Shown here in pieces: positions 19,421 through 51,790 of a DNA stretch of 64,000 nt; within the stretch, counting starts at the first letter, position 1, and the number at the start of each line of letters is the position of its first letter. The position numbers were made by a program, and so were the translations under genes. The DNA is from a virus (taxonomy: Duplodnaviria; Caudoviricetes), in IMG/VR virus record IMGVR_UViG_3300005805_000064, positions 1 to 64,000 of that record. One strand, given 5' to 3'. Under the pieces are notes generated by a model, which saw only the letters and a program-made list of their open reading frames with translations, was not told the DNA's origin and did no database searches.

Positions 19421-19428
19421 TATTTATA
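19421..19428 (-). promoter_or_regulatory. T4-type late promoter TATAAATA upstream of the structured RNA
   Basis: Exact TATAAATA overlapping the ugd stop codon. Confidence 0.6.
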
Positions 19429-20602
19429 CTTTGCGTGTGTTTCCGTAATGAATGATTTTGTCGCTTGTGCGCTCAATCATTCTCCACGGGTCTATGACAG
19501 TTGCATTCTCGGGAAAAGTGATATTACGGACATAATCGTCCCAATATCCTATCAGATAAACATCTGTCCAGTCTGTTTTTAAATCTGTGTCGCCGGTATG
19601 CTCATCATAGTAGTTGACATTGCCCATCTTACCCTCTATATAATGACCGACTAACATGCTTGCGCTACCGTTAGTATAATGCACTCCGGGCTTATATGCT
19701 TTGCCTACTATAGTGATGTTCTTACCATATTTCAAGCAAGTCTCAGCCATGCGTTCTGCTTGCACTTCTCTGGCTCGCATGATGCTATCGAACAGATCAT
19801 ATCCCAGATTCAACCGCTGTGCTAGATAACGCAATGCTATATTGTCACGAGGATGACATGCGCCACCGTCTCCCATACCTGCTTTCATATATGCAGGTCC
19901 CATGATTCGTTGCGTAGAGTTTTTCAATGCATTGGTTACCACATCGGTATCGATATTCTCATTGGTTTCTGCAACATCTTGTATCATATTGACTAATGCT
20001 AATTTAGTTGATATGAATGTATTATAGAAAATCTTGATAGCCTCTGCTTCGTCCCATGTACCTACCTCATAGCGTGTTCCTTCAGTTACAAAAGTTTTGT
20101 AGAAATCAATCAATTCTCTAGCATCACCTGTTGTGTCGCCGTCTTTAGTTCCTATGATAATCATCTCAGGGTTTATCATGTCTTGTTTTATTGTACCCAT
20201 TGCGATCAAATATGGATTATATAAAAACCTAGCATTGATGATATATGGCTGTAACAGTCTACGAACTGTGCCCGGCAATACTGTACTAATGAGAACCACT
20301 AGTTGGCTTTGATTAACATATCTGTTAACTTCTATTAATATGTTTGTGACGATACTATAATCAAAATCTTTGCTAAACAAATGGCTAGTAGGTAATTCTC
20401 CGCCATATATAGGATCATGCGGCGTAGGCGCTGCTATGAATATAATGTCTCTATCCTTGACGCATTCTTCTATAGAATTAGCCATGGGAAATATTGGCGT
20501 TCTAGGTTCTATATCATAACCCAACACATCGTGATGTTGCGCCATGACCTCGGCGCAATCTTGGCCTAATTTGCCTACGCCTATCATCGAAATTTTTTTC
20601 AT
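19424..20602 (-). CDS. ugd: UDP-glucose/GDP-mannose dehydrogenase family
   Basis: IGVGKLG, STVLPGT, AEAIKIFYN, GDGGACHPRD catalytic Cys. Confidence 0.9.
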   Translation of the reverse strand: MKKISMIGVGKLGQDCAEVMAQHHDVLGYDIEPRTPIFPMANSIEECVKDRDIIFIAAPTPHDPIYGGELPTSHLFSKDFDYSIVTNILIEVNRYVNQSQLVVLISTVLPGTVRRLLQPYIINARFLYNPYLIAMGTIKQDMINPEMIIIGTKDGDTTGDARELIDFYKTFVTEGTRYEVGTWDEAEAIKIFYNTFISTKLALVNMIQDVAETNENIDTDVVTNALKNSTQRIMGPAYMKAGMGDGGACHPRDNIALRYLAQRLNLGYDLFDSIMRAREVQAERMAETCLKYGKNITIVGKAYKPGVHYTNGSASMLVGHYIEGKMGNVNYYDEHTGDTDLKTDWTDVYLIGYWDDYVRNITFPENATVIDPWRMIERTSDKIIHYGNTRKV

Positions 20603-20603
20603 G

Positions 20604-20978
20604 TCATTTGATCGGTAATTCGCTCAATCCATGTTCTCGGTCAAGATATTTCATTTCAATCTTTACAGGATCCCAATCTTTCAATGCTTCTACAACATGA
20701 TAAGGATCTAAAGGACCGCAAGTATAAACATCCAGTTGCATCAATGCAGGTTCTGATTCATCCCAGACATGCAATGCTATATGACTTGTTTCTATAATGC
20801 TAACGCAAGTTATTCCACGATTACCTTTCACATCGAGGTATTTTGCAAAGGGACCCATCAATAACTTCATCCCTATTTTATCGATAAGATTGCTCACCCA
20901 TATTTTAACACCTGCTTCAGTCATTGGAGGATTCTTTACCTCTGCGCGGATGATCAAGTGCTTGTGATATATTGCCAT
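20604..20978 (-). CDS. speD: S-adenosylmethionine decarboxylase proenzyme
   Basis: IIETSHIALHVW self-cleavage motif, LDVYTCG. Confidence 0.88.
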   Translation of the reverse strand: MAIYHKHLIIRAEVKNPPMTEAGVKIWVSNLIDKIGMKLLMGPFAKYLDVKGNRGITCVSIIETSHIALHVWDESEPALMQLDVYTCGPLDPYHVVEALKDWDPVKIEMKYLDREHGLSELPIK

Positions 20979-20989
20979 TTTAAATTACC

Positions 20990-23900
20990 TCATGTATATT
21001 TTTTTCTGTAATAATCTTGTAGCCAAGACCATTCGTAAGATTTCTTCAATTCTTCGATATCGCCCATGACTGTATCGTAATATTCTACGGCATCTTTACT
21101 ACCCTGTATACAACTTTCGGCATAGAGGCCTTCTGCTACTGTAGTCCATATATTTAATCGTTCGCTAGCGATGTCACTATAATCGCTCTTGAGTTTGATC
21201 ACTTCTCTGAACGCTGTGCGCCAAGTGCTATAAGGGTCAGTATTGAAGTTAGCGACCCCCGATAGTATATCAACAGATTCATGGGGATCATCTAATGTGA
21301 AGTCAAGACCTACGCCAGTGTTATTCAATGTCAACTTCTTGTTATATGCGATCATGGCTTGGTGACCATATACAAGCCCGTTTAACGGGTTCTTGGCTGT
21401 GAAGATGTAATGCTTGGGTATCTGCAATCTATCTGGTTGCCAGTTGAAATCGAACTTCTCATCGATCTTGAGTTTAGCGAATACTGTAAACATCCAGGGT
21501 GTACTGCTTGCTTGTGCTGCGGCATGATATGCTGCTACACGACCATTCACACCATCTACTCTCACTACCTTGTTAGGCAGATGTTTAGTGATCTTCAACA
21601 AATGTTGATAGTTCTCTTCTGCGCAACTTTCACCATTGCTCAAGAAAACGATATCTAATGGTTTTGATTTAGCGACCCTCTTCGCTTTAGTTATATAAGG
21701 ATAATCATATAATTCGTTATCCACATATAGTTTCGCTTCTTTTGGTAGTGCAAGAACTGTGCCACCTGTGGTCAATATCTCAATATTCTTAGTATGATCT
21801 GCCCATAAACACACAGGTTCATCATAGTTCACCGTTATGTCCTTGTTGTCTGCTGTCTTAAAGATAGCATACGGGAAGTCATAATCTGTCTTGACCGCAT
21901 CGATATTAGTGTCATGGTCTAACACGAACTCGGGCGCAGGTAATCTCTTTGTCCTGATATGATTGTTATAATTGATCTTATCATAATCTTCTAACAGATT
22001 CATGTCATCGATCAAACTCTTTAATTTGTTGACATCGACTAAGAATGTGTCGCCGAACTTCTGCTTGTCGCTAGGGAACACATGTAGATTCTCTTTAGCG
22101 AATGGATCGCAGATATATGTCATATCGAAATTCTGATAATCGCACACAGAACTGCATACCCAGATATAATTTTCTTTGTTGGGTTTTACCTTCAACGATA
22201 TGTCGCGCAATGTCTCAAGGTAACTCTTTCTATATGGCACTACATGTACAGTCTTACCCGTAGACTTAGATAATAATTGCTCTTTGATCTTGTCTGTTTC
22301 ATTATTACCATGATCTATAAGATAGATATCGTACAAGCAATTCGTTGCCTTAGCAGCACGGTTCTTGACAAAGTTAAGATTGCTTAGATGCTCTATGATC
22401 TTGATGTACTTGGTGTCTTCAGGAAATGTGTCTTTGTTCAGCAAGTATGTGGTTCCCCAATGGCTCCACTGTGTGCCAAATATATGAACCATCTTCAATT
22501 GCCAAGGGTTAGGATAATACTTGAAGTCAAAGTTACTGTAATCAAGTTCGCTGTTCAATATCCATGCTAACTGTGTAGTGCTTCTATTCAAGCAACGATA
22601 GATCGTGTCTACCCAACTATTGAGATAGCGTGTCTTTTGTATGTTAGGGAATCTTTCTTGCAACTTCTCAAATCTTTCTTTAGCCTCGGCATTGCCGCGG
22701 TCGATCATGAAGATATCTGGCTGTATGAACAAGTCGGCTAGATATTCGTTCTCTGCTTTGACATCGCCCGTGACGAAATTATACTGAGTGAAGCCTTGCT
22801 TATATAGTTTGCTGTTGACGAAATATGTTTGTGTCTCTTTCGCTTCAGGGCTACCGAATACATGAACGAATCTTGCCTGTTCAATATTTGGACGCCAACT
22901 GAAATTGAAATTGCTGTAATTAATGTTCTTGTTCAACGCCCAGAACAATTCATCTGTGTGTTCATCTATCAAGTCTTCAAGTGTGGTCTGTATATAATAC
23001 TTAGGAATCTCTACGAACTCACTACGGTGTTTCTTTGTCACACGCTGTAGTTTGATGATCTCACCGTTGTTCTTTTTAGTTTTGTATATAGGGCCATCTG
23101 TATCATCGAACAATGTGCCGAACTGATAGATATATGGCGGGCTACCGGGATTAGGTCTCCAACTGAAATCAAAGTCATCAGTATTGATATTTTCTGGTAT
23201 GACCCAATTGGTCATATCGCTCACTACTTCTGCCGTGATATCATGTATGTACTTTTTCTCAGTAGCATTCTTGACATGATACTCTAATGTTGGTTCTACT
23301 TCGCCACTGTTCCACTGATTGCCGAACACATAGATATAGGGAGGACTAGTAGGATCAGGTCTCCAACTATAGTCAAAATCACTTCTGACTTTGATCAACT
23401 CACGCCACTTGTTGTAATCAGGTAATACATGCGCAGTTTGCGGCATATACTTACGCTGTGTAGCACCCTTGACATGATATTCTAATGTAGGTTCTATCTC
23501 AGCACTATTCCACTGATTACCGAACACATAGATATAAGGCTCGTCATGTGGATCAGGTACCCAACTATAATCGAAACTTGTGCGATCTACAGGTATGATC
23601 TCTGTGAATCGATCATAGTTCTGTGCTAACTGTGCTACGAATGAATTGTCATACTTGTAATCAGTAGCGCCGCTGACCCTGTACAATATAGTAGGCATCT
23701 TTTCTGCTGGATACTGAGTGTTACCGAAAGCATAGATATAAGGTTGTTCTTTGGGGTTCGGTCTCCAACTAAAGTCAAAACTTTCTTCAACGATAGGATG
23801 CAATATCTTATAGTTATTCTTGTTAGGCAATACGGTAGCAACAATGTCCTCTATATACTTGTATTCAGTAGCGCCGGGCACATGATATTCTAATGTAGGT

Positions 23901-26900
23901 TCTACGCTGGCTAAGTTCCATTGATTACCAAACACATAGATATATGGCGGAGCCTTAGGATCAGGCACCCAACCAAAATCAAAATCTGATTTGTCTACTG
24001 GTATCTTTTCTACCCAGTGTGTCATGTTAGTTGCTAACTTGGCTTTGACATCATCGACATACTTGATCTCAGTAGCATTCTCTACGACATAACGAACAGT
24101 AGGCATGACTTCGCCGGGATACTGAGTATTACCGAACACATAAATGAATGGATCATCGTATGGGTCAGGACGCCAGCTAAAGTCGAACTCACTTTCTACT
24201 ATAGGTATCAATATCTCAAACTTACTTTTGTCTTGTGCGACCTTAGCGATGATATCATGCACATACTTTATCTCAGTGGCACCAGGCACATGATATTCAA
24301 CTGTAGGTTCTTTCTCTGCTCTATTCCATTGATTACCGAACACATAGATATATGGTGGTGCTTCGGGATGCGGTACCCAACTGAAATCAAAACTATCAGG
24401 TTCTAATCTTATCTTTACTTTAAAATTCTTAGTATCAACTAATGTCTTTGCTTGTATGCCTTTGATATATTTCTTTTGAGTAGCATTATGTGTATGATAT
24501 ACAGGACCTCCTACATCATTCCATATCGTAGCAAACTCATAGTCATATGGCTCTTCTGTATTATCAGGATGCCAACTAAAATCAAAACTATCAACATCTA
24601 TGTTGCTAGGAATAGTCCAGTTAGTCTTATCAGATAGTTTGATAGCATATTGAACATCGACATATTTTGTCTCAGTAGCACCTTCGACAACATATCTAGG
24701 ACCATTAGTCTTTTGATGTTGCGTACCAAACTCATATATGAACGCAGGTTCAGTATCGTCTGGATGCCAACTAAAATCAAACTGTGAAACATCTAAACCT
24801 TCAGGTATCACATAATTTTTGATATCAGGCAGTCTAACTGCTCTCTGACTATCAATATACTTGACTTCTGTGGCTCCTTCAACCGTATATGTAGGTCCGC
24901 CTGTCTTCTGCCATTGTGTACCGAACTGATAGATATATGGCGGGCTACCCGGATCGGGCAACCATTCGAAATCGAATTTATCTAAATCTATATTATTGTC
25001 ATATCTCCATTTAGTCATGTCAGCAAATGTCTTTGCTACAACTTCGTTCACATATTTTAATTCCGTAGCACCCGGCACTACATATTTTACTGTGGGCATG
25101 ATCTCAGCACTATACTGCTCATTGCCGAACACATAGATATATGGCTGTTCTGTATTATCAGGATGCCAACTATAATCAAAACTTTTGATTTTTATATCAC
25201 ATAACTGCCAATATATAGATGTAGGTTTAGCGATTGCCTTATCGCTGTACATGTATTTGATCTCACTAGCACCTTCTACAACATATCTAGGACCGCCGTT
25301 CTTTTGATGCTGTGTGTTGAACTCGTAGATATAAGGTTGATCATGTGGATTAGGAATCCAACTAAAATCAAACTTGCTATCATCAATATTATCAGGTACT
25401 ATCCAATTTGTTTTATTCTGTGCTAACTTAGCAACGATATCTGTGATATATTTTTCTTTTATAGCACCAGGCATACGATATTCAATCGTAGGCATTTGTC
25501 TAGCATCATGATGCTGATTACCAAAGATGTAAATGTAAGGTTCTTCGGTATTATCGGGATGCCAACTGTAATCAAAATCTTCTATCTCATGATCTATTAA
25601 AATATTGAAATTGTTTTGATCAGGCAATCTTTTAGCGATTATACCCTCGACAATCTTGACTTCAGTTGCACCAGGAACGACATATCTTGGTCCACCGTTC
25701 TTTTGATGCTGCGTGCCAAACTCATATATGTAGTCAGGCTCCAATGGGTCGGGCCTCCATGTAAAATCAAAACTATTTTTGTCTACATTAGCAGGTATAT
25801 CCCATCGATCATATTCCGGCAATACAACTACATCATCAGTCATGTACTTTATCTCGGTAGCACCGGGCACAACATATTCAACTGTTGCTTTATACTTGTT
25901 ACTGATATACTTGTTACCCCAACGATAGATGTAAGGAGGATCATTGGGATTTGGTATCCAACTAAAATCAAACTTATTTTCGTCAATTGGCTGAGTGATT
26001 ATCCAATTGGTTTTATCTATATCTAATGTTGCTACGATGTCTGCGACATACTTGATTTCAACTGCGCCCGGTACTACATACTGTATAGTAGGCATTTCTT
26101 CTGCTTTGTATTGGTTGTTACCAAAAATATAGATATATGGTTGTTCACTGTTATCAGGGTGCCAACTATAGTCGAAATCTTTTATCTTTATATTTTGATT
26201 CACAAGCCAATTTGTTATGGTGGGCAACGCTCTTGCCTGTTGACTATCAATATATTTGATTTCAGATGCGCCGGGGACAACATATCTAGGACCACCTGTT
26301 CTCTGCCACTGCGTGCCGAACTCATAGATATAAGGAGGGTCTTTAGGATGGGGTACCCAGCCAAAGTCAAACGCGGATATATCGATATTTTCATTAACAT
26401 GCCAACATTCAGGCTTAATTCCTATCTTAGCCTTGATAGTGTCGATATATTTGTATTCACTGGCGCCTTCTACAACATATTGTAGCGTCGGCATAATCTC
26501 ACCTGAATAGTGCTGATTGCCAAACACATAGATATAAGGCTGTTCACTACTATCAGGATGCCAACTATAATCGAAATCTTCTACAGGAAAATCTGTAACA
26601 ACAGTGAATCTATCTTTTTGCGGCATATGCTTCACGGATTGTGAATCAATATACTTGATCTCACTAGCACCTTCTATGATATATCTTGGTCCATTTGTCT
26701 TTTGATGTTGCGTGCCAAACTCATAGATATAAGGTGGGTCGTTCGGATTAGGCTCCCAACTATAATCAAAGGTCTCATCATCGACACTAGAAGGTACTGA
26801 CCAGTTCGTCATGCATGGCTTACGGACTACACGGTCGTTCATGTATTTGTACTGAGTGGCGCCCTCTACTTTATAGGCTACGCTTACTTTGTCTCTTGGA

Positions 26901-27736: not shown

Positions 27737-27749
27737 GCATTTACTTATT

Positions 27750-30753: not shown

Positions 30754-30759
30754 GTGTAT

Positions 30760-30861: not shown

Positions 30862-30862
30862 A

Positions 30863-34045: not shown

Positions 34046-34046
34046 T

Positions 34047-42120: not shown

Positions 42121-43514
42121 ATATTATCCCACCATTGTAGTAATTTTGCATTTCTGCTATAGATATCACGCAATGTCAACTTAGCATCGCGGATTTGTTC
42201 TAATCTGTGTACCCATCCTTTACCATTCTTTGCTGCTTGCCTGAATGTATCGGGCCATTCTTCTTCGTGCGTCTTTCTAGTGTTCTTCAATGCTTCTAAG
42301 TTTGCGATCAATGTGCCATGACGCCATTCGTCTGCTCTAGGTCTGATATATTCAAGTATATCGTCACATACTTCATTCAATACTTCTCTAGGCCAACTAG
42401 TCGGGCTCCACATGATATCAGGATGGAATGCGAATGTGATCTTTGTCTCAATCTTGACACCTAGTTCATTGCTCAAATCAAACAAGTCTTTTAGTGAGAA
42501 CATGCCCGGTGCTGTGATAGTCAAATCAAGAACCATCTTTTGTCTTCCGCCGGGTAATTCACATCCACGCTTGAAATTCTCAAGCCATTTATCCCACTTG
42601 ATACCTGTGCGTATATACTCAACGATATCACCAGTGCCGTCGATGCTTGCGCACATCATCCAGTCTTTGAAGTGCGGTAGATAATCATATAGATTCTTAG
42701 TTCCAAATTGAACACGGCTCAAGTTACTGTTATATCTTAGATAGCAATTCTTTGCGCTACCATTGCGTAGCATCTCTTCTAATGTCCACCAATGCACATC
42801 GTACATCAATGGCTCACCACCTACCCAATACATTTCTTCAACTATGCCGCGACTGACAGCATCACGGAACTCTGGTTCTACTACTTCTGTCTGAAACTTC
42901 TCCATAGCATTCTTGATTTCTGGTACCATGAATGGTTGATGCTTAGGAGTCCACATATTGTGAATCTTCTTTTCAGTTTCCCATGTTGAACTTAATTGCT
43001 CACCACACATGCGGCACTTGAAATTGCATAGATTGCTGAAACGATAATCGAATGATATAGGTTCCATAGTAGTGTAGCCTGTGTCATCTGTCTTATCAAA
43101 TGCTTCTTGTATCTTATGTTTGAACAATGTGCCTGTGAACCAACCACGATAACTATGACCTTCCATCAATAGATTCTTATTGCATACATCACACTGTGGA
43201 ATCTCTTCTCCGCGCATGAGTTTGACACGGATATCACGCATGTATTCACTGTTCCAATGTTCTTTTAATGACAATGGTTTATACTTATCTACGGATGTCT
43301 CGCTATCCTTTGTCTTGCCATAGCGTTCATCATTGCTGCTGTCGATATATTGTTTTTGGAAACTATGTTCTTCTCTGCTTGCGCAACATAGTCTGCGTTC
43401 GCTTTGAGGGCTTATATAGGTATGCGTCCATGGAGCCATGCAAAAGACTTTATTTTGACTGTCTTTTGCAGGCTTCGCATCATCTCCCCATATAGGAATT
43501 ATTTTGTTGTCCAT
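42117..43514 (-). CDS. Radical SAM enzyme, N-terminal twitch-like domain (CxxPW type)
   Basis: CMAPW...LCC...CDVC; CNFKCRMC; GGEP. Confidence 0.92.
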   Translation of the reverse strand: MDNKIIPIWGDDAKPAKDSQNKVFCMAPWTHTYISPQSERRLCCASREEHSFQKQYIDSSNDERYGKTKDSETSVDKYKPLSLKEHWNSEYMRDIRVKLMRGEEIPQCDVCNKNLLMEGHSYRGWFTGTLFKHKIQEAFDKTDDTGYTTMEPISFDYRFSNLCNFKCRMCGEQLSSTWETEKKIHNMWTPKHQPFMVPEIKNAMEKFQTEVVEPEFRDAVSRGIVEEMYWVGGEPLMYDVHWWTLEEMLRNGSAKNCYLRYNSNLSRVQFGTKNLYDYLPHFKDWMMCASIDGTGDIVEYIRTGIKWDKWLENFKRGCELPGGRQKMVLDLTITAPGMFSLKDLFDLSNELGVKIETKITFAFHPDIMWSPTSWPREVLNEVCDDILEYIRPRADEWRHGTLIANLEALKNTRKTHEEEWPDTFRQAAKNGKGWVHRLEQIRDAKLTLRDIYSRNAKLLQWWDNI

Positions 43515-44239
43515 TGTAGTTCTCGTAGTTTAGGTAATACTAAATGATTTACTATAGATTGGTGCCCTTCAATAGTAGGATGAGTAGTCTGATCGTACTG
43601 ATTAATATCTAACACATATTGATCTATACCATATGCTTTGCCATTTCTTTTATATGCGACAATTTCACAGTTAATAGGAAATTCTGAAAAATCAATGTCG
43701 TCAGCAGTAGCATTATTATGCAACCCCAGCAAAAACAGAAATTTGTTATTACCTGTTTTAAATGCTTCTGATAGCAAGTTCGTTTGAAAAGATAAAAATC
43801 TAGCATTATCTTGCCAAGAGGTATTTACCTCATGAGGCCATATATCTGCAATCCATCGATAGTGTGTCTTAAAACCTGACAAAACATATTTTCTTCCATA
43901 TATCTCATGAGTTTTTAACGGCATATCTTCGGTTGATTCTAGATACTTGAATAGATCGTATGCTTTAAAAAAATCATAACCGTGCGTCCCGGAAGTAATA
44001 TCCAAATCTTCTCTTCTTATATGGGTAGATTGAAATATTATCAGACAATTTTCAAAAGTTATTTTTTCATAAGCCCAAATAGCATAAAAATTGTTTAGTA
44101 TAGTTTTATTAGATGCCCCGGGAACAGTGAACTTCACTAATGATTTGCCTAACAAATTAGATAGGTAATCAGCCCAACTCAATTTGTAGTCAGTAAAACT
44201 ATCACCTATCGCAACAATAGTGTCTCTAATCAATCTCAT
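43499..44239 (-). CDS. SGNH-like protein
   Basis: AIGDSFT, PGASN, DQTTHPTIEGH. Confidence 0.75.
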   Translation of the reverse strand: MRLIRDTIVAIGDSFTDYKLSWADYLSNLLGKSLVKFTVPGASNKTILNNFYAIWAYEKITFENCLIIFQSTHIRREDLDITSGTHGYDFFKAYDLFKYLESTEDMPLKTHEIYGRKYVLSGFKTHYRWIADIWPHEVNTSWQDNARFLSFQTNLLSEAFKTGNNKFLFLLGLHNNATADDIDFSEFPINCEIVAYKRNGKAYGIDQYVLDINQYDQTTHPTIEGHQSIVNHLVLPKLRELQWTTK

Positions 44240-45462
44240 AAATTAATACCTGAATTTGAATATAGACTTAAATCCGTACTGTACATCTCTTTATAATTTT
44301 TACCCCAGTTATCTTTATTATATCCATATTGCGACATTAAATCTGCCCATTCCGGAAAAACATCTAGGAAAGATTCGCGCCGCCTGATATCAAATTTCAT
44401 CAAATGATTTATTGCTATAGGCATGAGATTAGTCCAATCTTTACTGAACATATAATTAATCATACCATCGACATCACCTTTATCATGCCACACTCTAGTT
44501 TTCATTTCTTGCAAATATTTCGCTGCCTTTTCTTTTTCATGTTGTGGTAATACATGCAGCGTATATTCTTTAGAATACACTACCGTATTATTGTACATTC
44601 CTTTAGGATCTATCGCATATAATTCTTCTAACAAATCACCCCATTTATATAATATGGGCCAAGCAATAGTAGTGATGTAAGTTCTTTTTATAGGTAAATC
44701 GGCATCTCTGACTAATTTAATATTCTGTATAATGTCATTCCAATCAGTACCGTAGCGCCAATAACCATGACCGGGGCCCGCAGCATCGACACTCATTCTA
44801 AAATCTATTTCATCAAAATGTTTCCATTTATCAAAAATATGTTGACCTTTAAAAGTCAACTGACTTACATTAGAATAATAATTTAATTTAGGTTTGTATC
44901 CATTCTTAATAAAGAAATCAAGCAACTCCCAATGTTGCCAATGCAATAATGGTTCGCCGCCGCTAAATGTTATTCTTCGTATTGTGTGAGCATGTTTTTT
45001 AACTTGATCTAAAACAAAACCCTCATATGGACCCGGTGTTCTGTGTACTTCATATGTATGATTATCTTTTTCTTCATACATCTTGTTTTCATGTGCTATT
45101 CGTGAACTTACATGATCGTAGCAAATTCTGCACTTTGAGTTACACAAATTAGAAAATCTAACCTCTACATGATGTATTTCATCTTTATAATATACATCCT
45201 CTTCAAAATGATTTACTTTGTCTTTGCGTTCACTGCCTAAACCCATATCTTCAAGATAATAACAGGCATTGCAGCGGCTAGGACGCTCATCTCTTAGATG
45301 TTGCTCTCTTAATTCTTTTAAGAAAGGGTCGGCACGGTATTCATCTATAGTGATGGTGTCTTTATTTGTTGTTATGAAAGGACATATACCTACGGTTCCT
45401 GCCATAGAATAATGTATTGCCCCGAAAGGCATAGGGCAACGATTTTTATATTCTGTAGTCAT
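44236..45462 (-). CDS. Radical SAM enzyme, N-terminal twitch-like domain (CxxPF variant)
   Basis: CPMPF...ICP...CNACY; CNSKCRIC; GGEP. Confidence 0.92.
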   Translation of the reverse strand: MTTEYKNRCPMPFGAIHYSMAGTVGICPFITTNKDTITIDEYRADPFLKELREQHLRDERPSRCNACYYLEDMGLGSERKDKVNHFEEDVYYKDEIHHVEVRFSNLCNSKCRICYDHVSSRIAHENKMYEEKDNHTYEVHRTPGPYEGFVLDQVKKHAHTIRRITFSGGEPLLHWQHWELLDFFIKNGYKPKLNYYSNVSQLTFKGQHIFDKWKHFDEIDFRMSVDAAGPGHGYWRYGTDWNDIIQNIKLVRDADLPIKRTYITTIAWPILYKWGDLLEELYAIDPKGMYNNTVVYSKEYTLHVLPQHEKEKAAKYLQEMKTRVWHDKGDVDGMINYMFSKDWTNLMPIAINHLMKFDIRRRESFLDVFPEWADLMSQYGYNKDNWGKNYKEMYSTDLSLYSNSGINL

Positions 45463-46991
45463 TATAGATCAGGATTTACGAACACTTCCTTGCTAGGATC
45501 TTCAGGTGGATGTTCTGGTACTAAGTCCATTCCTTCACGATAATTACCTGTTATGATCTCTGCGCTAGTAGGTACTTCAGTGTCGATGCTATCAAACCAG
45601 GCTACGAATTCTTCTGGGAAAGTCTCACGGAAGTTCTTAGCACGGCGCACATCATACTGACTATAGAATTGCTTGAAGTCACGCTTGTTCTGCTCAGGGT
45701 CCTTGACATTCTTGTGTGGAGTCTTGATGACGTCAAGATAATCGATCAAACGCTGAGTCTGCTCACGCTCAATAGCAGTCAATAATGGTTCACCGTTACT
45801 AGTCTTCTCATTCAAGTGTATATAATGGTTCAACCACTTCTGCAACTTGTCGCTATACTTCTGACGAATATCCATTGGCAACATCGCGCAACTCTGGAAA
45901 CTTGGGAAACGCAAGATATTCAAACTCATTGTTGGATATGTTGAGTCGTGCTTGCGCTTGAAGTTCATGATCTCTGTCATGAATTCTGTGATGCTTGACA
46001 AGCACAAACTATTGATAGTCATCATGATATGTGTGCGCTTGACATTACCTTCAGTATGCAATCTTTCAAGATTGCGCAACCATATATCCCAATTAAATCC
46101 ATCACGGATGTATTCAGCATGTTTACCTACTGCTTCACAACTTGTATACACTTCAAGCCATGGCACATAGTGACTCAATTCTATGAAACGATCCATGATA
46201 TCATCTTTAGGTACGAGGTTGCTATTGATAGCATAACGCATGACCTTACCGTCTGGGCGATTCTTTACACGCTCTTGGTTAGCCTTGAACCATTCGAATA
46301 GTTTCCATACACCTGCAGCCATTAATGGCTCACCGCCTGTGATACGAATCTCTTCAAGGTTATCAGCGAGGCCGTTCTCTTGTTCCCACCAGCGCCAGAA
46401 CGCTTGTGTGTATGGGTTAACTTCATCCGGCAATGGCTTTGCGTGATCTGCCTTGTTGATGAAGTGACTACGGGCATCACCGTTGATGTTACGATATGGA
46501 CCAAACTTGACGATATCCTTTACCCATGTAGTGCTAAAACTTGGGTTGCAATATGAACATGCGAAATTACAAGTTCTGTCGAATGCGATCTCAAGTGTAC
46601 GCAACATAGTGTTTTCTTGCCAGTCTGCTTTAGCAGTCTGTGCGATATACTCTTCCTGGTGTACGGCAGTCTTGTATACACGGTCTGAGATAGAACCGCG
46701 ACCCAAGTCTTCGATCTTCCAGCAATACTCACATTCTTGAGGACGAGTGCCTTCCTGCATCATCTTACGCATCAATTTCTTATGCGGGGTGTTGTGAATA
46801 GCAGTTGGATTATCTTTTAATTCGTTAGCATCGATCTGGTGTCCCAATGGGTGGTGACAACTTGCTGTCTGGCCGTTACCCAACCAAATAGTAGCATTTA
46901 GCCACTTGGCTGCACAATAACTGTCACTAACGATGTCGATGACTCGTTTCTTATAATCTGCGTATGTTTCGTCTGGTCTTTTTCCTGCCAT
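45462..46991 (-). CDS. Radical SAM enzyme, N-terminal twitch-like domain (CxxKW type)
   Basis: CAAKW...SCHHP...CEYCW; CNFACSYC; GGEP. Confidence 0.92.
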   Translation of the reverse strand: MAGKRPDETYADYKKRVIDIVSDSYCAAKWLNATIWLGNGQTASCHHPLGHQIDANELKDNPTAIHNTPHKKLMRKMMQEGTRPQECEYCWKIEDLGRGSISDRVYKTAVHQEEYIAQTAKADWQENTMLRTLEIAFDRTCNFACSYCNPSFSTTWVKDIVKFGPYRNINGDARSHFINKADHAKPLPDEVNPYTQAFWRWWEQENGLADNLEEIRITGGEPLMAAGVWKLFEWFKANQERVKNRPDGKVMRYAINSNLVPKDDIMDRFIELSHYVPWLEVYTSCEAVGKHAEYIRDGFNWDIWLRNLERLHTEGNVKRTHIMMTINSLCLSSITEFMTEIMNFKRKHDSTYPTMSLNILRFPSFQSCAMLPMDIRQKYSDKLQKWLNHYIHLNEKTSNGEPLLTAIEREQTQRLIDYLDVIKTPHKNVKDPEQNKRDFKQFYSQYDVRRAKNFRETFPEEFVAWFDSIDTEVPTSAEIITGNYREGMDLVPEHPPEDPSKEVFVNPDL

Positions 46992-46998
46992 ATATTCC

Positions 46999-48564
46999 TC
47001 AATTTTGTGTATATTCTTTCACGCACTCTTTCCAGTAATTCTTAAACTCCGGGAAGGTGAGTAGGAAATTAGTGCCCCGTCTTTTATCGAACTCTTTAAT
47101 GAAAAGATAGAAATTCTTCTTATTTATTGACTTTTGATTTTGGGGCAAAGATTCCTTCATCACAGCCAAATCTCGCTTGACTTTGAGTATCTCGTAGGGC
47201 TTGAAACCCTCGAATGTCTCTAAGTAGTCATCTCCCTGCACATTGTCTTCCATGAACTTCAAACAACGCTCTACTTCTTGTATCTCTTTCTCGGTAGCAT
47301 TAGTCACGCTGAACCAAGGCGGGAAACGCAAGATAGGAATGTCAAAGAACACACGCTGGAACTTTTTCTGCGTGTAGACTTTGTGAACGATACCATGCTT
47401 CTTTTCTTCTTCCGTTTGCTCAGGACTGATAGTGAACTCAGTCTGCGCACGACCGCCGAACTCACGGCGTAGTTCCAATATCATCTCAAGGAACTTGTGT
47501 AAACTAGGTATGCTCAACAAGTTAAAGGTATTGATGAAACTCACAGTAGTGTACTTTGTCTCACGCAAGAAGGTTCTGATGTTGTTCAACATCCTATCAT
47601 ATTCTAGACCTGTGCGCATATACTCTGCTTGAGGGCCCACTCCGTCTAGTGACACGAATAGCCAGAAATGCTTGAAACCTTTATCTACATACCAATGATT
47701 ACCGCTGAACTCATTGAAGTTTTCCTTGTCTTCATATGTGCGCAACTCTTCGATAGCCTTGACTTTTTCTAGGAACTTATCAAATAGTTTCTGATCGGGT
47801 GGGCACATGTTGCTGGTTATGCTCAACTCAAGTTGTCCATGAGGATTCTTGTTGACATAATCAAGCACTTTGAATGTGTTCTTGTCCATTAATGGCTCGC
47901 CACCTGTCATACGGAACACACGCAACTTTCTATAGATAGTGGGCCACCATTTCCAGAAAGCCTCTACATAAGGATTTTCTTTCTGTGCTACTCTTATGGG
48001 CATCAAGCCCTTTTGCTCTAATGATGGTAGATCATTGTGAACATAATTGTCTAACACGAATCCGCCATACTTTCGTACTTCTTCTTCCCATGTCGTTGAC
48101 AAGTGTGGGCTGCAATACATGCATTTGAAATTACATGCTTGATTGAAATTGACTTCTACATATCGGGGAGTCACATCATAGTCCCAAGGATTACCCGTGA
48201 CTTCATCGAATGTAGGTGCGTTCCACCATTCGCTACTACGATAGTGACGATCACTTAGATGTCCTTTAGGATCATCGCTCTGCGCATCTTCTACACGCCA
48301 GCAATATGCACAGCCTTCGGGTCTTTTACCCTCAAGCATCATCTTGCGTTCGGCAATCTTTTGTGGTGTGTTGTGTAATGCGCTTGGTTGCTTTTCTAAT
48401 AATTCTACAGGTATCTTATGTGTAGGTGGATGATAGCAACTCTGTGTGAGTCCTTGCGGCAAGTGCAAACTCACTTGCTGCCATTTTGCTAGGCATAAAG
48501 AAGGACTGACCGCATTTAAGCGGTCTCGCATGTCCCTAGCAAATTGATCGTATTCGCCTGACAT
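46999..48564 (-). CDS. Radical SAM enzyme, N-terminal twitch-like domain (CxxKW type)
   Basis: CLAKW...SCYHP...CAYCW; CNFKCMYC; GGEP. Confidence 0.92.
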   Translation of the reverse strand: MSGEYDQFARDMRDRLNAVSPSLCLAKWQQVSLHLPQGLTQSCYHPPTHKIPVELLEKQPSALHNTPQKIAERKMMLEGKRPEGCAYCWRVEDAQSDDPKGHLSDRHYRSSEWWNAPTFDEVTGNPWDYDVTPRYVEVNFNQACNFKCMYCSPHLSTTWEEEVRKYGGFVLDNYVHNDLPSLEQKGLMPIRVAQKENPYVEAFWKWWPTIYRKLRVFRMTGGEPLMDKNTFKVLDYVNKNPHGQLELSITSNMCPPDQKLFDKFLEKVKAIEELRTYEDKENFNEFSGNHWYVDKGFKHFWLFVSLDGVGPQAEYMRTGLEYDRMLNNIRTFLRETKYTTVSFINTFNLLSIPSLHKFLEMILELRREFGGRAQTEFTISPEQTEEEKKHGIVHKVYTQKKFQRVFFDIPILRFPPWFSVTNATEKEIQEVERCLKFMEDNVQGDDYLETFEGFKPYEILKVKRDLAVMKESLPQNQKSINKKNFYLFIKEFDKRRGTNFLLTFPEFKNYWKECVKEYTQN

Positions 48565-49517
48565 TACCAGCCTTCGATCCTTCTGATCACATCCATCTCT
48601 GTCACAAGAGGACCAAGATTATGCTTATCAGCATTGTAATGCCTCTTGAAGAATTCGCTTTGCTCTGCCGATAATGTGCAGATAGGTAAACCTAATTTGA
48701 ACTTCAGTTGTTCGCCCACTTGTTCCATAGCGTCTTTGGGATCTTTGCCTTCTGCATATTCGTTCCACAATGCAGGATAGTTATCGAACCATTGAACATT
48801 GCTATGGTCCCAGTCACTTAGCATAGTGAGATATGTTCCCAATCGTGCGCCATACATAGCCCAATAACCGTTGTCAACATCTGCGCCTACATTCTGCCAT
48901 ATAGTGAGATTATTGAAGTTACGGCTTGCTACAGAATCTTTAAATTGCTCTACTGTCGGTACTGCGCCCTTGTTCAAGCACATCTTTACACCTTCACGGA
49001 AACCTGCACGCCATGCTTGAAACGGAGTGTAGTTAGGGTATGTAGTTGAATAGCAATCATACATAGCCCAATATAAACTGTCTTTGCTGTCTAGGCAGAA
49101 GTCTGCGATTCGTGATACATCACCTTCAGTCTGATGCTCATGTGTCTTCATCTCACGCACATAAGTCTTAGTCCAACTGCTCATGCCACCGTTACCATAA
49201 CGCAAGCCATTGATAGCATTCACTGCCTTCCAACGGAACTGTGCTAACTTATACTTAGGATCTTTATCTGTGAAATCGAATTGTATGTTGAAGAACTCAG
49301 GTTGCGGCATGTTGTCGCCGTCGATGAGAATAAAGCGTTCAGTATCGCTTGCCTCACCTGCTGCTTTATGCGCAGCATCACTACCTTTAACATTATCAAC
49401 ACGCTTTGCCCAAGGAACCATGTTCTGAATCTGCATCCAGAATTCTTCTTTTTGTGGTTCATCATAACTCAAGTAAATGCAGTCTAATTCTGCAACATCT
49501 ACGATATCATAACTCAT
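48564..49517 (-). CDS. GT-A-fold glycosyltransferase-like protein
   Basis: YLSYDEP, KGSDAAHKAA, FILIDGDN (DxD), AWRAGFREGVKM. Confidence 0.72.
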   Translation of the reverse strand: MSYDIVDVAELDCIYLSYDEPQKEEFWMQIQNMVPWAKRVDNVKGSDAAHKAAGEASDTERFILIDGDNMPQPEFFNIQFDFTDKDPKYKLAQFRWKAVNAINGLRYGNGGMSSWTKTYVREMKTHEHQTEGDVSRIADFCLDSKDSLYWAMYDCYSTTYPNYTPFQAWRAGFREGVKMCLNKGAVPTVEQFKDSVASRNFNNLTIWQNVGADVDNGYWAMYGARLGTYLTMLSDWDHSNVQWFDNYPALWNEYAEGKDPKDAMEQVGEQLKFKLGLPICTLSAEQSEFFKRHYNADKHNLGPLVTEMDVIRRIEGW

Positions 49518-49863
49518 GTGTATGTAACTTCCATTTTTGTTGATCTGTGTAGTCGCTATTTACTACAACGCTAATATCTGTTTTTGCAGTGGATTGACCT
49601 TCATCAGCAGGCTTTAATTTAGAAAATGTCATGCCAGGTACAATCTTCACTATTTTTCCTTCAATAACTCTAATATCATACCGCATCTCTGAAAAGGTAT
49701 TTTTGTCGATGATGATATAATTTCCTTCCGGCTTATCACAGGTGTAGAAATCTACACTACCATCATCTCTGTAGTAGAGTCTGAATTCGACGGGTTCCAC
49801 TATAGTTTCTTCAGCCACTAGATATTCTACCCCGTTTATCTCTATTACTTTAAGTCTTTCCAT
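49507..49863 (-). CDS. Hypothetical protein
   Basis: 118-aa ORF coupled within the GT cluster. Confidence 0.65.
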   Translation of the reverse strand: MERLKVIEINGVEYLVAEETIVEPVEFRLYYRDDGSVDFYTCDKPEGNYIIIDKNTFSEMRYDIRVIEGKIVKIVPGMTFSKLKPADEGQSTAKTDISVVVNSDYTDQQKWKLHTHEL

Positions 49864-50653
49864 ATGCGTTTTCTATTTTACTACAAAAGTCCTTCACATG
49901 ATAATGAAAAGGATACATTTGCGGTACTGTATTCACTCTTAGTGTATCGGGTAATATTTCATAAACCAATTCTTTTGTCCAATCTTCTGTTTTAAGATTG
50001 TTGATCATTTGTTTCATGTGCACCATGCTAAATTCCTTAAACAAGGGCATAGTAGTTTTTTCAACGCCTATCATGCTACATGCTATGGCATAAACCCAAT
50101 CGGTAGTTGCTTCTTCATCTACTTTACATTGTAGTAACTTTTTATATTCATCCCAATTTTCGAATATATTTCTCACCAACTTAAAAAAATGTTCAGCGGT
50201 TTCGCTTTTCTTAAAATAAGTTAACGCATTATAACAGTCAGGAAGATTGTTGTTATCTATGAACTTTCTATAATAGCGCACATCAGATATCCTCTGATTG
50301 TAACTTCTAATATGTGTGCTTACCACTACATCGAGTTGTGAGCAAACATCAAAATAATAATCTATAGGTCGCGGTATATACAAGTCTGCTTCAAGTTTTA
50401 TAGTATGATCATATGGGCTTGCTTCATAAACTTGCCAGTCATTTATTAGTTTCCATTTACTTTCTTTTGCTTGATCACCATATGGCAAGGCTATGACACT
50501 ATCAAAATATGTGCTAGCATCGATGTCGTCCGTTAATAAAGATATATGCATATGAGGCATAGTTTTCTTTATGCTTCTTGCTAATATTTCTGCACATTTG
50601 ATGTAATCAATGTCTACAGTATTTTGTGCTAAGATTACAAAACCTCTACTCAT
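49850..50653 (-). CDS. GT-A-fold glycosyltransferase-like protein
   Basis: LARSIKK, ASPYDHTIKLEADL (DxD-position variant EAD); paralog of the next gene. Confidence 0.7.
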   Translation of the reverse strand: MSRGFVILAQNTVDIDYIKCAEILARSIKKTMPHMHISLLTDDIDASTYFDSVIALPYGDQAKESKWKLINDWQVYEASPYDHTIKLEADLYIPRPIDYYFDVCSQLDVVVSTHIRSYNQRISDVRYYRKFIDNNNLPDCYNALTYFKKSETAEHFFKLVRNIFENWDEYKKLLQCKVDEEATTDWVYAIACSMIGVEKTTMPLFKEFSMVHMKQMINNLKTEDWTKELVYEILPDTLRVNTVPQMYPFHYHVKDFCSKIENAYGKT

Positions 50654-51462
50654 TTTGTCAACTCCACAAATATATCTTTGTTTATGACATGAAAATCCAT
50701 ATTTTTTAATGTGATGTATTCTTTTTTGATTTTACCTCTCATCCATTTATCATATATTACTGTGTACTCTGTGCAGAACACATCATCATTATTTTTATAT
50801 ACAAAAGTCTTAGGACCTATATGTGTTAAATTCCAAGGTATGATATCTGATCTGATATCAGCATGTCCATTAACTATCCTATGTGCTATAGTCAACCCGT
50901 AATCATTTCTATAGGTGTCGCATGAGAACTTATGTATATTACCGTAGTGTGGGTAATTCTCTTGAACCATCTTCAAGCACTGAAAAATATTCTCTACTCG
51001 TTTTGTCTTTTTGAATCCTACAACAGTAGCCCATAATGTAGGTATGGTCAGTTCGTTGCTAAAGTCTAAATGTTCTTTCTTATCATATTCGTTCATTAAA
51101 AAGTTGATAGATTCATGACAACAAAAATCATCCATGACATCAAAAACTTTCATCAGAGTGTCGCTATTGACAAGATAATCCACATCTAACAAAATAGTAT
51201 CGTCATATGGGCTCAGTTCATAACTACGGTAGCGTCCTTTATTTAACCAGACTCTTCCATGAAATGTGTTGTTGGGATCGCTGTCTATCGTATAGACATT
51301 ATCAAATTTATAGCCCGTAGTAGTCGCTAATGAATTCTTATCTGTAACTATGCTTACTGGAAGATTGAGAAAATGATTCACACGCTTGGCAGTAAACTCA
51401 GCCATGTGATAGTAATTGTATTCAGGACTATTGAACGCAAAAAGAAGAACACCTTTTGTCAT
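50650..51462 (-). CDS. GT-A-fold glycosyltransferase-like protein
   Basis: LSPYDDTILLDVDYL (DxD), YRNDYG. Confidence 0.75.
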   Translation of the reverse strand: MTKGVLLFAFNSPEYNYYHMAEFTAKRVNHFLNLPVSIVTDKNSLATTTGYKFDNVYTIDSDPNNTFHGRVWLNKGRYRSYELSPYDDTILLDVDYLVNSDTLMKVFDVMDDFCCHESINFLMNEYDKKEHLDFSNELTIPTLWATVVGFKKTKRVENIFQCLKMVQENYPHYGNIHKFSCDTYRNDYGLTIAHRIVNGHADIRSDIIPWNLTHIGPKTFVYKNNDDVFCTEYTVIYDKWMRGKIKKEYITLKNMDFHVINKDIFVELTK

Positions 51463-51764
51463 CGCTTGGTCTCGGTCTCTTTAAACTCTGTAAGATATGA
51501 TGACATGTTTTCTTGATAGACTGATTTGAGCCTATTCAACAACGATAGCCTGTCAACTTCGACTGGTCTGTTGTGCGTATCGATGAGTATCAGTTTTTCT
51601 GTGTCGAAACTCTGTAAAAGGGTTATTGTTTCTGCGTTAGCAGCCCATAATCCATTTTGATCGGCAACTAAAAATTTGTTTTTGTATTTTTCTCTAAGGT
51701 AATCTTTAGCAGAATTATGTGCGAATCTTGCTTTTGCTTCGGATAGAAGGCTTTGGATATCCAT
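51459..51764 (-). CDS. Hypothetical phage protein
   Basis: 101 aa; GGAG RBS; TATAAATA upstream. Confidence 0.7.
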   Translation of the reverse strand: MDIQSLLSEAKARFAHNSAKDYLREKYKNKFLVADQNGLWAANAETITLLQSFDTEKLILIDTHNRPVEVDRLSLLNRLKSVYQENMSSYLTEFKETETKR

Positions 51765-51782
51765 ATAAACTCCTCTTCCGAG

Positions 51783-51790
51783 TATTTATA
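51783..51790 (-). promoter_or_regulatory. T4-type late promoter TATAAATA heading the modification island
   Basis: Exact TATAAATA 18 nt upstream of the ATG at 51764. Confidence 0.65.

Follow-up and report, generated by a model that had tools for sequence, protein, structure and literature searches.

The window analysed here is a 64,000-nucleotide stretch of viral DNA (Duplodnaviria; Caudoviricetes), the first 64 kb of an 85,267-bp contig filed as IMG/VR record IMGVR_UViG_3300005805_000064, whose source is an uncultured freshwater giant phage. According to the list of open reading frames (ORFs), all genes of the window are on the minus strand, to which the positions given below refer unless another locus is named. 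Between 19424 and 51764, 28 ORFs follow each other in one run with overlaps of 1–41 nt or gaps of at most 13 nt, counting a 33-codon ORF at 30760–30861. They form an operon of about 32 kb, placed just behind the baseplate and fibre genes, which we call the island. It combines an array of radical S-adenosylmethionine (SAM) genes with genes for glycosyltransferase-like proteins, a carbamoyltransferase, sugar-nucleotide enzymes and a giant repeat protein. To the reading that the island is a late-expressed, cytoplasmic line for glycan assembly and radical editing, whose product decorates the virion on fibre proteins or on the giant repeat protein, we would give an even chance of being right.

The island was first described in a reading of the letters alone, here called the original prediction. 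It reported one co-oriented run behind the tail/baseplate block, headed by a late promoter and holding 12 CxxxCxxC radical SAM genes at 30.9–48.6 kb, a NodU/TobZ carbamoyltransferase, three GT-A proteins, a short-chain dehydrogenase/reductase (SDR), speD, ugd and a 2248-aa repeat protein. All of these were recovered by the profile searches, structure comparisons and motif counts presented below, which also extend and correct the earlier description at several points.

All 12 radical SAM proteins, encoded at 30863–48564, contain the CX3CX2C motif. Pfam Radical_SAM (PF04055) is found in 11 of them at or just below the gathering score, with nine above it, and is absent from R11 (32037–33293). The NCBIfam model NF033640 (N_Twi_rSAM) is likewise passed by 11 of the 12, which score 176–362 bits against a cut-off of 170 across the full 398-position model. 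In operon order these N-terminal-twitch (N_Twi) proteins are R1 (46999–48564, 292.7 bits), R2 (45462–46991, 298.1 bits), R3 (44236–45462, 251.4 bits), R4 (42117–43514, 313.5 bits), R5 (40266–41477, 337.3 bits), R6 (38980–40269, 293.2 bits), R7 (37892–38989, 176.1 bits and barely above the cut-off), R8 (36600–37895, 359.3 bits), R9 (35300–36610, 361.8 bits), R10 (34047–35300, 244.4 bits) and R11 (202.9 bits). The remaining protein, R12x (30863–32044), is of another type: it reaches 31 bits with the same model, carries its CX3CX2C at residue 18 together with a Cys-rich C-terminus, and matches PHROG 21308 (E 1e-14).

The 11 N_Twi proteins have a characteristic architecture. N-terminal of CX3CX2C they all carry at least four cysteines in the pattern C-x17-18-C(C)-x~40-C-x2-C, and after it a GGEP SAM-binding motif; in R1 the four N-terminal cysteines, CX3CX2C and GGEP are all present. 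Pfam places a SPASM domain at residues ~12–112, ahead of Radical_SAM, in R4, R5, R8 and R9 (in R4, SPASM 25–112 and Radical_SAM 158–316; in R8, SPASM 12–78, E 1.5e-12). Judged by these sequence features, the twitch/SPASM auxiliary-cluster domain of NF033640 members is N-terminal to the radical SAM core, a placement that corrects the original prediction. This domain order is the reverse of that in BtrN, anSME and the peptide maturases. The earlier analogy to BtrN and NeoN is therefore reduced to a resemblance in fold class, since the island enzymes belong to another, uncharacterised subfamily with a permuted domain order. As a lead, BtrN, NeoN and BlsE offer a radical SAM core, an auxiliary Fe-S cluster domain and a carbohydrate-pathway context for comparison, but their auxiliary domain is C-terminal, and neither a significant sequence relationship nor common pathway partners connect them to the island; R10 gives a weak NCBIfam match to BlsE (E 5e-4). 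Full-model scores, the four-Cys N-terminal domain, CX3CX2C and GGEP tie the 11 proteins to NF033640, a subfamily model without a characterised member, which is expanded here to 11 copies in one operon.

Are these paralogs recent tandem copies? Their pairwise identity is 15–35%. In a tree of homologs from 11 phage loci, the Ralstonia jumbo phage RsoM2USA and 23 bacterial loci (FastTree, local supports only), R1, R2, R4, R5, R6, R8, R9, R10 and R11 are resolved as orthogroups, each kept across phages, with orthologs diverged to about 40% identity; the R1 orthogroup has a support of 99 and the R4 clade one of 100. R1, R2, R6, R10 and R11 together with the RsoM2USA enzyme group in a clade that holds phage sequences only (26 rows, support 100), in which R10 is sister to R2, while R4, R5, R8 and R9 interleave with sequences from Bacteroidota and Bdellovibrionota. 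R3 is a long branch. Low paralog identity and orthogroups that cross phage boundaries lead us to conclude, from sequence comparison, that the paralogs are old, individually maintained enzymes and not recent tandem duplicates. The ancestral core appears to be R1-R2-R9-R5-R4, of which R4, R5 and R9 are core orthogroups, and this lineage appears to have added R3, R6, R7, R8, R10, R11, R12x, the SDR and extra SGNH genes to it. Metagenomic members of the family number in the thousands, with 4911 homologs at E<1e-10 for R9 alone.

The island as a whole is conserved in other phages. The order J316-I315-A101-B270-C267-(D118)-E317-N_Twi radical SAMs-(SGNH)-microprotein-carbamoyltransferase-(SGNH)-giant protein recurs on dozens of IMG/VR contigs of 35–364 kb, with 35–88% identity, and is also seen on phage contigs binned into metagenome-assembled genomes. 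In total, more than 100 IMG/VR jumbo-phage contigs keep this gene order. The original prediction had named homologs scattered without linkage as an outcome that would speak against it; what we find is linkage conserved among the IMG/VR contigs and, in a minimal form, in RsoM2USA. Copy numbers are high throughout, as NF033640 members above the cut-off number 14 in G001 (352 kb, 100% complete), 11 in G004 (354 kb), 17 in G005 (320 kb), and 13 and 15 in two partial related genomes. As an observation on the paralog family itself, N_Twi genes are not confined to the island in G004 and G005 (records of L073 and L084); in G005 about ten copies are spread over 39–320 kb outside it, an expansion that is genome-wide in this phage lineage.

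RsoM2USA is the only cultured relative found. Its minimal version consists of two GT8-like genes, E317, one radical SAM gene and one E317-like gene. Homologs of J316, B270, C267, E317 (ORF350, 41% identity), R1 (34%) and module 3 of the giant protein lie there directly after the genes for the baseplate wedge, a 2541-aa virion protein and the sheath, and all of the island homologs are annotated as 'hypothetical'. About 12 studies of lakes and fresh water have metagenomes that contain near-identical DNA, and the sequencing runs listed for them are DNA only. A megablast search with 35 kb of the window against the INPHARED phages returned no match, and in the literature we found no paper analysing such radical SAM arrays.

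The island also encodes the giant protein of 2248 aa (20990–27736). Its residues ~120–1560 consist of 22–23 tandem units of 64–68 aa with the motif FDFSWxPDPxxPPYIYxFGNQ...PTxEYxVPGATExKY, rich in Tyr, Trp and Phe. In an AlphaFold2 (AF2) model of the last 999 aa (pLDDT 88) each repeat forms a small four-stranded beta module, and the repeats are followed by three alpha/beta modules. Foldseek relates this C-terminal part to tandem-GT-A enzymes (chondroitin polymerase K4CP, heparosan synthase, LH3 and mimivirus R699) and also to the multi-glycosyltransferase (multi-GT) proteins that giant viruses encode. E317 has a paralog in module 3 (29% identity, E 6e-6). While the tandem GT-A architecture is evident, the DxD per domain that goes with bifunctional GT-A polymerases of the K4CP, heparosan synthase or LARGE1 type is missing: in module 3 FAK replaces the DGD present in E317 and in its own RsoM2USA counterpart, ORF348, and modules 1 and 2 have no DxD at the equivalent strand. 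Even so, conservation of the GT-A-like modules is strong: dozens of their residues are invariant in the 42 homologs. The homologs range from 534 aa with 0–1 repeat to 2599 aa with 28 repeats, and we infer that such variation in repeat number would be more typical of exposed appendages than of enzymes. An Atlas search with the C-terminus added nothing beyond clusters of viral hypothetical proteins and a weak lead to GT2.

The aromatic repeats invite a protein-directed explanation of the radical chemistry, in which the paralogs would be maturases akin to those of ribosomally synthesised and post-translationally modified peptides (RiPPs), crosslinking, epimerising or otherwise modifying the repeats of the giant protein or the fibres, with sugars added afterwards. 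Many SPASM/twitch radical SAM enzymes are indeed peptide maturases, weak NCBIfam matches connect the island enzymes to PapB, YhhB, DynA and similar families, the repeats number 22–23 and a conserved 33-aa peptide is present. Yet radical SAM numbers and repeat numbers show no relation (14/11, 11/7, 17/9 and 13/17 in related phages), lineages with 0–1 repeat keep about five radical SAMs, and RsoM2USA combines a single radical SAM with the lack of a repeat protein, which is missing from the bacterial homolog clusters as well. RiPP radical SAM maturases come with a PqqD-like recognition element, and the gene for their precursor peptide lies next to the maturase gene and tracks it. No PqqD or RiPP recognition element (RRE) domain was found in Pfam scans of the island proteins (E<=0.01), and the 33-aa peptide tracks the carbamoyltransferase instead of a radical SAM. 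We consider the protein-directed explanation quite unlikely, and crosslinking of the repeat protein in particular is weakened by the same mismatch between radical SAM copy number and repeat number.

The carbamoyltransferase itself (28394–29908) is of the NodU/TobZ type and contains both domains of O-carbamoyltransferases, Carbam_trans_N (E 6e-36, 125 bits against a cut-off of 24) and Carbam_trans_C (E 8e-50, 169 bits against 27). It is not NodU itself, as it scores 127 with the NodU equivalog model against a cut-off of 1000, and its true start probably lies about 10 codons inside the ORF. Upstream is the gene for a 33-aa microprotein ending in RDPFIY (30760–30861), which had been missed by the original prediction and is found in 72 related loci. 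Its consensus, MxWLKNLYxRIxLEIRYRKKLKELRKRDPFIYK, includes the invariant residues E15, Y18, E24 and RDPFIY, and its mean column identity is 78% versus 69% for the carbamoyltransferase. In 32 of 70 loci its stop overlaps the start of the carbamoyltransferase gene, and elsewhere only an SGNH-like gene lies between them. Because its position tracks the carbamoyltransferase and not the radical SAM, we read the microprotein, on the strength of this gene arrangement, as a putative companion of the carbamoyltransferase. A predicted complex of the two scored 0.05, which is below the mark and speaks neither for nor against the pairing. For the same positional reasons, namely the overlap in 32 of 70 loci and no more than an SGNH gene in between in the others, we rejected the ORF as a RiPP precursor for R12x. 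A 33-aa ORF also follows a radical SAM array in Bacteroidales, but its sequence is not related to that of the phage microprotein.

A similar arrangement is known from the saxitoxin genes sxtI (O-carbamoyltransferase), sxtJ, sxtK (DUF5989) and sxtL (GDSL), where a tiny protein ending in PFIY also precedes the carbamoyltransferase and a GDSL/SGNH gene stands alongside. DUF5989/SxtK proteins have an N-terminal amphipathic segment, one transmembrane helix and a C-terminal APF(I/V)Y. The phage protein, in contrast, has no transmembrane helix, gives no hit with PF19451 at E<=10 and reaches an hhalign probability of 17%; only its position before the carbamoyltransferase and its PFIY ending are held in common with DUF5989. 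We saw no SxtJ homolog in the island. A genuine DUF5989/SxtK microprotein (E 2e-25, ending in APFIYSLF) does occur in bacterial N_Twi loci, upstream of SxtJ and a carbamoyltransferase. In a Bacteriovoracales locus such a microprotein (L172:9824–9973, plus strand, E 1e-21) was seen directly upstream of an N_Twi radical SAM gene and not adjoining a carbamoyltransferase. As a separate observation, the invariant DPFIY end of the phage microprotein (30760–30777) resembles the P(P/D)(Y/F)IY core of almost every repeat of the giant protein.

The likeness to the saxitoxin genes brings up the possibility of a soluble small molecule, aminoglycoside-like or carbamoylated as saxitoxin is, that would be made in the infected cell and directed at the host, competitors or grazers. 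Radical SAMs, an SDR, a nearby aminotransferase, a carbamoyltransferase with a small partner and GDSL proteins make up a palette like that of secondary-metabolite tailoring, as in sxtI-J-K-L, and all island enzymes are soluble. Such a product would, however, call for a scaffold-forming enzyme such as an inosose synthase, a polyketide synthase or a non-ribosomal peptide synthetase, and for an exporter; the island has neither. Its constant linkage to fibre genes and its late promoters fit a small molecule poorly, and three GT-A transferases plus a giant multi-GT protein point to a polymer or a conjugate. The small-molecule explanation is thus improbable in our view.

The three transferases lie at the head of the operon. 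GT8 enzymes of the glycogenin/LgtC-like kind have a GT-A fold with an N-terminal Rossmann-like region and a DxD motif. B270 (50650–51462) and C267 (49850–50653) are putative GT8/glycogenin-like paralogs, the families of which match each other in hhalign with a probability of 99.6. B270 has a DxD (D93, D95) and C267 an ExD, and these motifs are invariant in the respective homolog alignments. The N-terminal 100 residues of C267 give a profile match to PDB chains of glycogenin-1 (E 6e-5), and the protein also has a weak match to PHROG 1903; neither member of the pair matches Pfam Glyco_transf_8, and the B270 profile has no PDB match. E317 (48564–49517) was modelled by AF2 with a pLDDT of 87, and its DGDN motif is invariant in 24 homologs. 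Its top Foldseek match is the capsid glycosyltransferase A64R of PBCV-1 (2p6w, E 2e-4), with GT-A enzymes at a probability of 1.0. VIA-align superposes it on B4GALNT1 (Z 9.4, rmsd 3.0, 143 aligned residues) and then on many GT-A enzymes; nucleotidyltransferases of the same fold reach Z~8. The predicted fold of E317 is accordingly that of a GT-A enzyme, the DxD standing at the end of beta-4. Two small conserved proteins accompany the transferases: A101 (51459–51764, 101 aa), the first gene of the operon, has no Pfam or PHROG match and is syntenic in at least 16 loci, and D118 (49507–49863) is syntenic in relatives and belongs to no recognised family.

Sugar-nucleotide and other small-molecule enzymes are found within the island and downstream of it. 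The last operon gene (19424–20602) encodes a nucleotide-sugar 6-dehydrogenase of the UDP-glucose type (UGD; Pfam central and N domains E 8e-18 and 2e-15, TIGR03026 E 1e-44). It is preceded by a speD-like S-adenosylmethionine decarboxylase (20604–20978; Pfam AdoMet_dc E 2.4e-13, TIGR03330 44 bits and below its cut-off), and the SDR (41437–42120; Pfam adh_short E 9.7e-8) is embedded in the radical SAM array. Outside the island, a DegT-family aminotransferase (4759–5856) and an SDR-type NAD-dependent epimerase/dehydratase (5801–6781) form a pair with Pfam E-values of 9e-48 and 4e-41. They are probable suppliers of sugar nucleotides to the island, and their homologs co-occur with bacterial N_Twi radical SAM loci. 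By analogy to the established ArnA/ArnB-type chemistry, it is plausible that they complete a supply line from UDP-GlcA to a sugar of the 4-keto/4-amino-pentose type.

The original prediction also counted four SGNH-like genes, and here the outcome is mixed. SGNH/GDSL hydrolases carry GDS(L) with the catalytic Ser in block I, a Gly in block II, GxND in block III and DxxH in block V. Block I is present as GDS in three of the proteins and as GCS in one, and all four have the C-terminal D..H. Two of them have Pfam matches, both below threshold: SGNH-like a (43499–44239, IGDSFTD...THPTIEGH) with Lipase_GDSL at E 0.0037 and SGNH-like b (33290–34045, FGDSYTYG...DNHTNEKGH) with GDSL families at E 0.006. 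The other two, F293 (29872–30753, FGCSYTFG...DRSHPGINHH) and G215 (27750–28397, ITGDSFCF...DSSPNH), are recognised by motifs, F293 having neither a Pfam nor an NCBIfam match; F293 homologs adjoin bacterial radical SAM clusters. The motifs are therefore upheld in all four, and profile matches, sub-threshold ones, in two. Across the Pfam, PHROG and NCBIfam scans, A101, D118, F293, G215, the fibre-like protein I315 and the 33-aa protein gave no match, and PDB sequence and profile searches yielded nothing meaningful for the C-terminus of the giant protein, E317, B270 and I315. No transmembrane segment is predicted in any island protein.

What do bacteria do with the same radical SAM family? A search for related bacterial and phage loci, with an alignment of three radical SAM paralogs as the query, showed that homologs of the carbamoyltransferase, UGD, the epimerase and the SGNH proteins recur beside N_Twi radical SAMs across 79 loci. 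On a Crocinitomicaceae chromosome three N_Twi genes are accompanied by UGD, an epimerase, a carbamoyltransferase, SxtJ, DUF5989, a UbiA+GT4+GDSL fusion, a sulfotransferase, a GDSL gene, PhyH and an ABC transporter, and in a Bacteroidales genome five N_Twi radical SAMs adjoin PMT_2-type GT-C and GT2 genes. The glycan-directed role put forward in the original prediction agrees with these gene contexts. A locus of Paenibacillus polysaccharolyticus (L209, 8044–17983) has a different composition: acyl carrier protein (ACP), N_Twi radical SAM, SDR, two ketosynthases, GT2, thioesterase, a FabA/ApeI-like protein, phosphopantetheinyl transferase and ABC transporter follow each other in what is a lipid/polyene-type context.

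If the chemistry concerns glycans, these could also be glycans of the host. In that case the enzymes would act on the cytoplasmic side of the membrane and alter precursors of the lipopolysaccharide (LPS) core, the O-antigen or the capsule, for example to block superinfection or to keep progeny from being trapped on debris. Cassettes with GT8, UGD and radical SAM genes have been described in the 'host recognition cluster' (HRC) of pelagimyophages, where they lie in the structural region and were attributed to modification of the host O-chain (Zaragoza-Solas et al. 2020, PMC7029224). The island agrees with the HRC of pelagimyophages and cyanomyophages in being a variable island inside or beside the structural genes of aquatic T4-like myophages, next to homologs of baseplate wedge and fibre genes, and in its GT8-like, sugar-nucleotide and radical SAM content. 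It differs in that the HRC has been described at the level of annotation only, in coming from another lineage (XacN1/RsoM2USA-like, ~350 kb, freshwater) and in having a conserved core order, a carbamoyltransferase-microprotein pair and a giant repeat protein. GT8 enzymes are typically LPS-core transferases, peripheral and without a transmembrane segment, which can act on lipid-linked cores, and the bacterial homolog loci are envelope-glycan loci with exporters. On the other side, a membrane protein, a polyprenyl-phosphate transferase, a flippase, a polymerase and an exporter are all missing from the island. Its late-type motif is that of the structural genes, a timing ill-suited to superinfection exclusion, and distant relatives, whose hosts presumably differ, keep the linkage to fibre genes throughout. 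Remodelling of the host envelope, which the original prediction had kept as a possible target, has lost ground through the lack of a membrane protein, a lipid-carrier enzyme and an exporter and through the late-type promoters, and we regard it as unlikely.

The promoter motifs deserve a closer look, as they connect the island to the virion genes. T4-type late elements are TATAAATA-like sequences at about –10 of late genes, without a –35 element. An exact TATAAATA at 51783–51790 heads the operon, 19 nt ahead of its first start codon, and a second one at 19421–19428 overlaps the stop codon of the dehydrogenase gene at the downstream boundary of the operon. There are three exact copies in the window versus 7.9 expected, and all of them are on the coding strand at gene boundaries. 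The relaxed form NATAAATA has 15 copies on the coding strand and two on the opposite strand of the 85-kb contig. Intergenic DNA is a few percent of the contig, yet it contains 12 of these 15 copies, mostly 6–30 nt ahead of start codons (two are at 155 and 210 nt) and including those of baseplate and fibre genes. An extra late-type ATAAATA motif just before the carbamoyltransferase gene (29909–29915) adds to the first description. A scan of 19–39 kb for sigma-70 promoters and terminators remained at or below the shuffle expectation. The counts and the positions at gene boundaries indicate that the island carries a late-class signature common to it and the structural genes, and by this motif its transcription would be timed late.

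Directly upstream of the operon lie two small fibre-like structural genes, I315 and J316 (51814–53744), each with its own GATAAATA and always linked to it. I315 is rich in Ser, Thr, Gly and Asn, J316 has PHROG virion structural matches, and both are candidate acceptor proteins. They are preceded by a fibre or structural ORF of 6288 aa, the 3' part of which occupies 54553–64000 of the window and which runs to contig position 73419. It is rich in Thr, Asn, Ser and Gly and distantly similar to ORF361 of RsoM2USA, the 2541-aa protein, which was detected in virions by mass spectrometry. A baseplate-wedge homolog (contig positions 73421–76804, minus strand) comes before it, and the homology of this fibre/baseplate region extends to RsoM2USA ORF361 and ORF362.

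Modification of the phage DNA would be a further use for a carbamoyltransferase and glycosyltransferases, which could decorate hydroxymethylated bases in the manner of 5-hydroxymethylcytosine (5hmC) carbamoylation or T4 glucosylation. A phage 5hmC carbamoyltransferase is known, and the genes found together with those of DNA-modifying carbamoyltransferases are for a hydroxymethylase, a dCMP deaminase and MazG-like proteins (PMC8670742). The window does contain a protein of the thymidylate synthase family (ThyA, 7015–7863). This ThyA is canonical, however, with PFNIASY and PPCH motifs; among the complete relatives G001 and G004 have a single ThyA-family gene and G005 has none, yet all keep the island; and no hydroxymethylase was found in the related complete genomes. 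Carbamoyltransferases flanked by glycosyltransferases lay on unmodified contigs (PMC8670742), and that of the island is flanked by SGNH, GT and radical SAM genes, which is not the gene context of the 5hmC type. Since ThyA is canonical and present once or not at all in complete relatives, and published DNA carbamoyltransferases have a different gene context, hypermodification of DNA is highly improbable.

These observations bring us back to decoration of the virion. Carbohydrate chemistry on a cytoplasmic acceptor is suggested because three transferases with intact acidic motifs occur together with sugar-nucleotide enzymes, and because the bacterial N_Twi relatives sit in glycan loci. The acceptor would be cytoplasmic because, unlike the bacterial loci, the island has no membrane segments, lipid-carrier transferase, flippase or exporter, and it would belong to the virion because of the late-type promoters and the constant linkage with fibre and baseplate genes. 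Each step, from glycan context to sugar substrate and from there to the virion target, is one that we infer.

Several points weigh against this reading. The sugar substrate is deduced from gene context for a family that has no characterised member, and one N_Twi gene, that of the P. polysaccharolyticus locus, belongs to a lipid-type ACP/ketosynthase cluster, which means that a link to glycans does not hold for the whole family. Some relatives also have many of their radical SAM paralogs at scattered positions beyond the island. The GT-like modules of the giant protein lack DxD and may be inactive, and the SGNH assignments are at the level of motifs. Late expression is deduced from promoter motifs, and the glycan, the acceptor, the enzyme activities and the location of island proteins in the virion are deduced from genes.

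How might such a line work? The dehydrogenase, with the further epimerase/dehydratase and the DegT aminotransferase, would make UDP-sugars, which the GT8-like enzymes and E317 would transfer onto a cytoplasmic acceptor. Each radical SAM paralog could then abstract a hydrogen at a different sugar position or residue, with epimerisation, oxidation, deoxygenation, decarboxylation or C-C/C-methyl chemistry as possible outcomes. The SDR may reduce keto intermediates, and the carbamoyltransferase and the SGNH-like proteins may attach or remove O-carbamoyl and O-acyl groups. As acceptors we favour the neighbouring fibre proteins, whose genes are co-regulated with the island, or else the giant repeat protein if this is a virion appendage. 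With its DxD-less GT-A modules and its variable beta-repeats, the giant protein could serve as a scaffold, a glycan-binding part or a carrier and would not be a canonical transferase.

Soluble viral enzymes that glycosylate structural proteins in the cytoplasm have precedents: GT-A proteins and sugar-nucleotide enzymes of this kind work for chlorovirus PBCV-1 (A64R and partners), for the mimivirus fibril and on the capsids and tails of mycobacteriophages. Mycobacteriophage virion glycosylation is known from Freeman et al. (2023), as cited in a paper on 'moraphage' (PMC12619734), which deals with a different lineage and does not mention radical SAM. Radical SAM enzymes, a carbamoyltransferase and a repeat mega-protein are absent from all of the virion-glycosylating systems named, and their likeness to the island is at the level of folds (~10% identity). 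With its eleven-fold radical SAM array, its carbamoyltransferase-microprotein pair and its DxD-less multi-GT repeat protein, the island differs from all characterised systems.

A more far-reaching version, which we hold to be rather doubtful, sees in the N_Twi paralogs a previously unknown class of enzymes for glycan editing or glycan-protein crosslinking. Jumbo phages would deploy them combinatorially, with 5 to >13 conserved orthogroups per operon, to turn ordinary sugars on fibres or on a repeat appendage of variable length into rare, hydrolase-resistant, carbamoylated structures, and bacteria (Bacteroidota, Bdellovibrionota) would share this class for their surface glycans. If so, an island for radical glycan tailoring would set the adsorption properties of the virion or protect it. 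Should the main reading of a virion-decorating line hold, no other virus would be known to concentrate so many radical SAM enzymes, here drawn from a subfamily without a known reaction. Virus-encoded glycosylation as in chloroviruses, mimiviruses and mycobacteriophages would then extend to abundant freshwater jumbo phages and would explain why 10% of such genomes are invested beside the fibre genes. One assigned reaction would annotate a large block of dark enzymology, with thousands of metagenomic members and recurrence in glycan loci of Bacteroidota and Bdellovibrionota, and would probably reveal new carbohydrate radical chemistry. The cultured minimal version in RsoM2USA makes the question experimentally tractable.

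Some features of the window outside the island are worth recording. The ThyA gene (360 bits) and a gene for a class I SAM methyltransferase (1945–2676) are located among the sugar-nucleotide genes downstream of the island. At 10100–14400 four genes have near-identical sigma-70-like promoters, GGCTTGAC(A/T)...TATAAT-like, and form what looks like an early-gene block in contrast to the late genes with NATAAATA; it includes a CobS-like ATPase (12228–13322) and its partner (10156–11487). Just downstream of the TATAAATA at the operon boundary and upstream of an unannotated 422-aa gene (17943–19211), a COG2908 RNA motif (19370–19414; Rfam RF02939, 71.9 bits against a gathering score of 58.7, E 1e-19) is a candidate for a cis-regulatory RNA. 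Finally, a permuted two-piece tmRNA with the tag ANDDVYALAA lies at 17291–17653 (Rfam tmRNA_permuted 140 bits and beta_tmRNA 138 bits, in agreement with ARAGORN). This tmRNA is of the betaproteobacterial type and hints at a host from that class, in line with the relatedness to the Ralstonia phage RsoM2USA.

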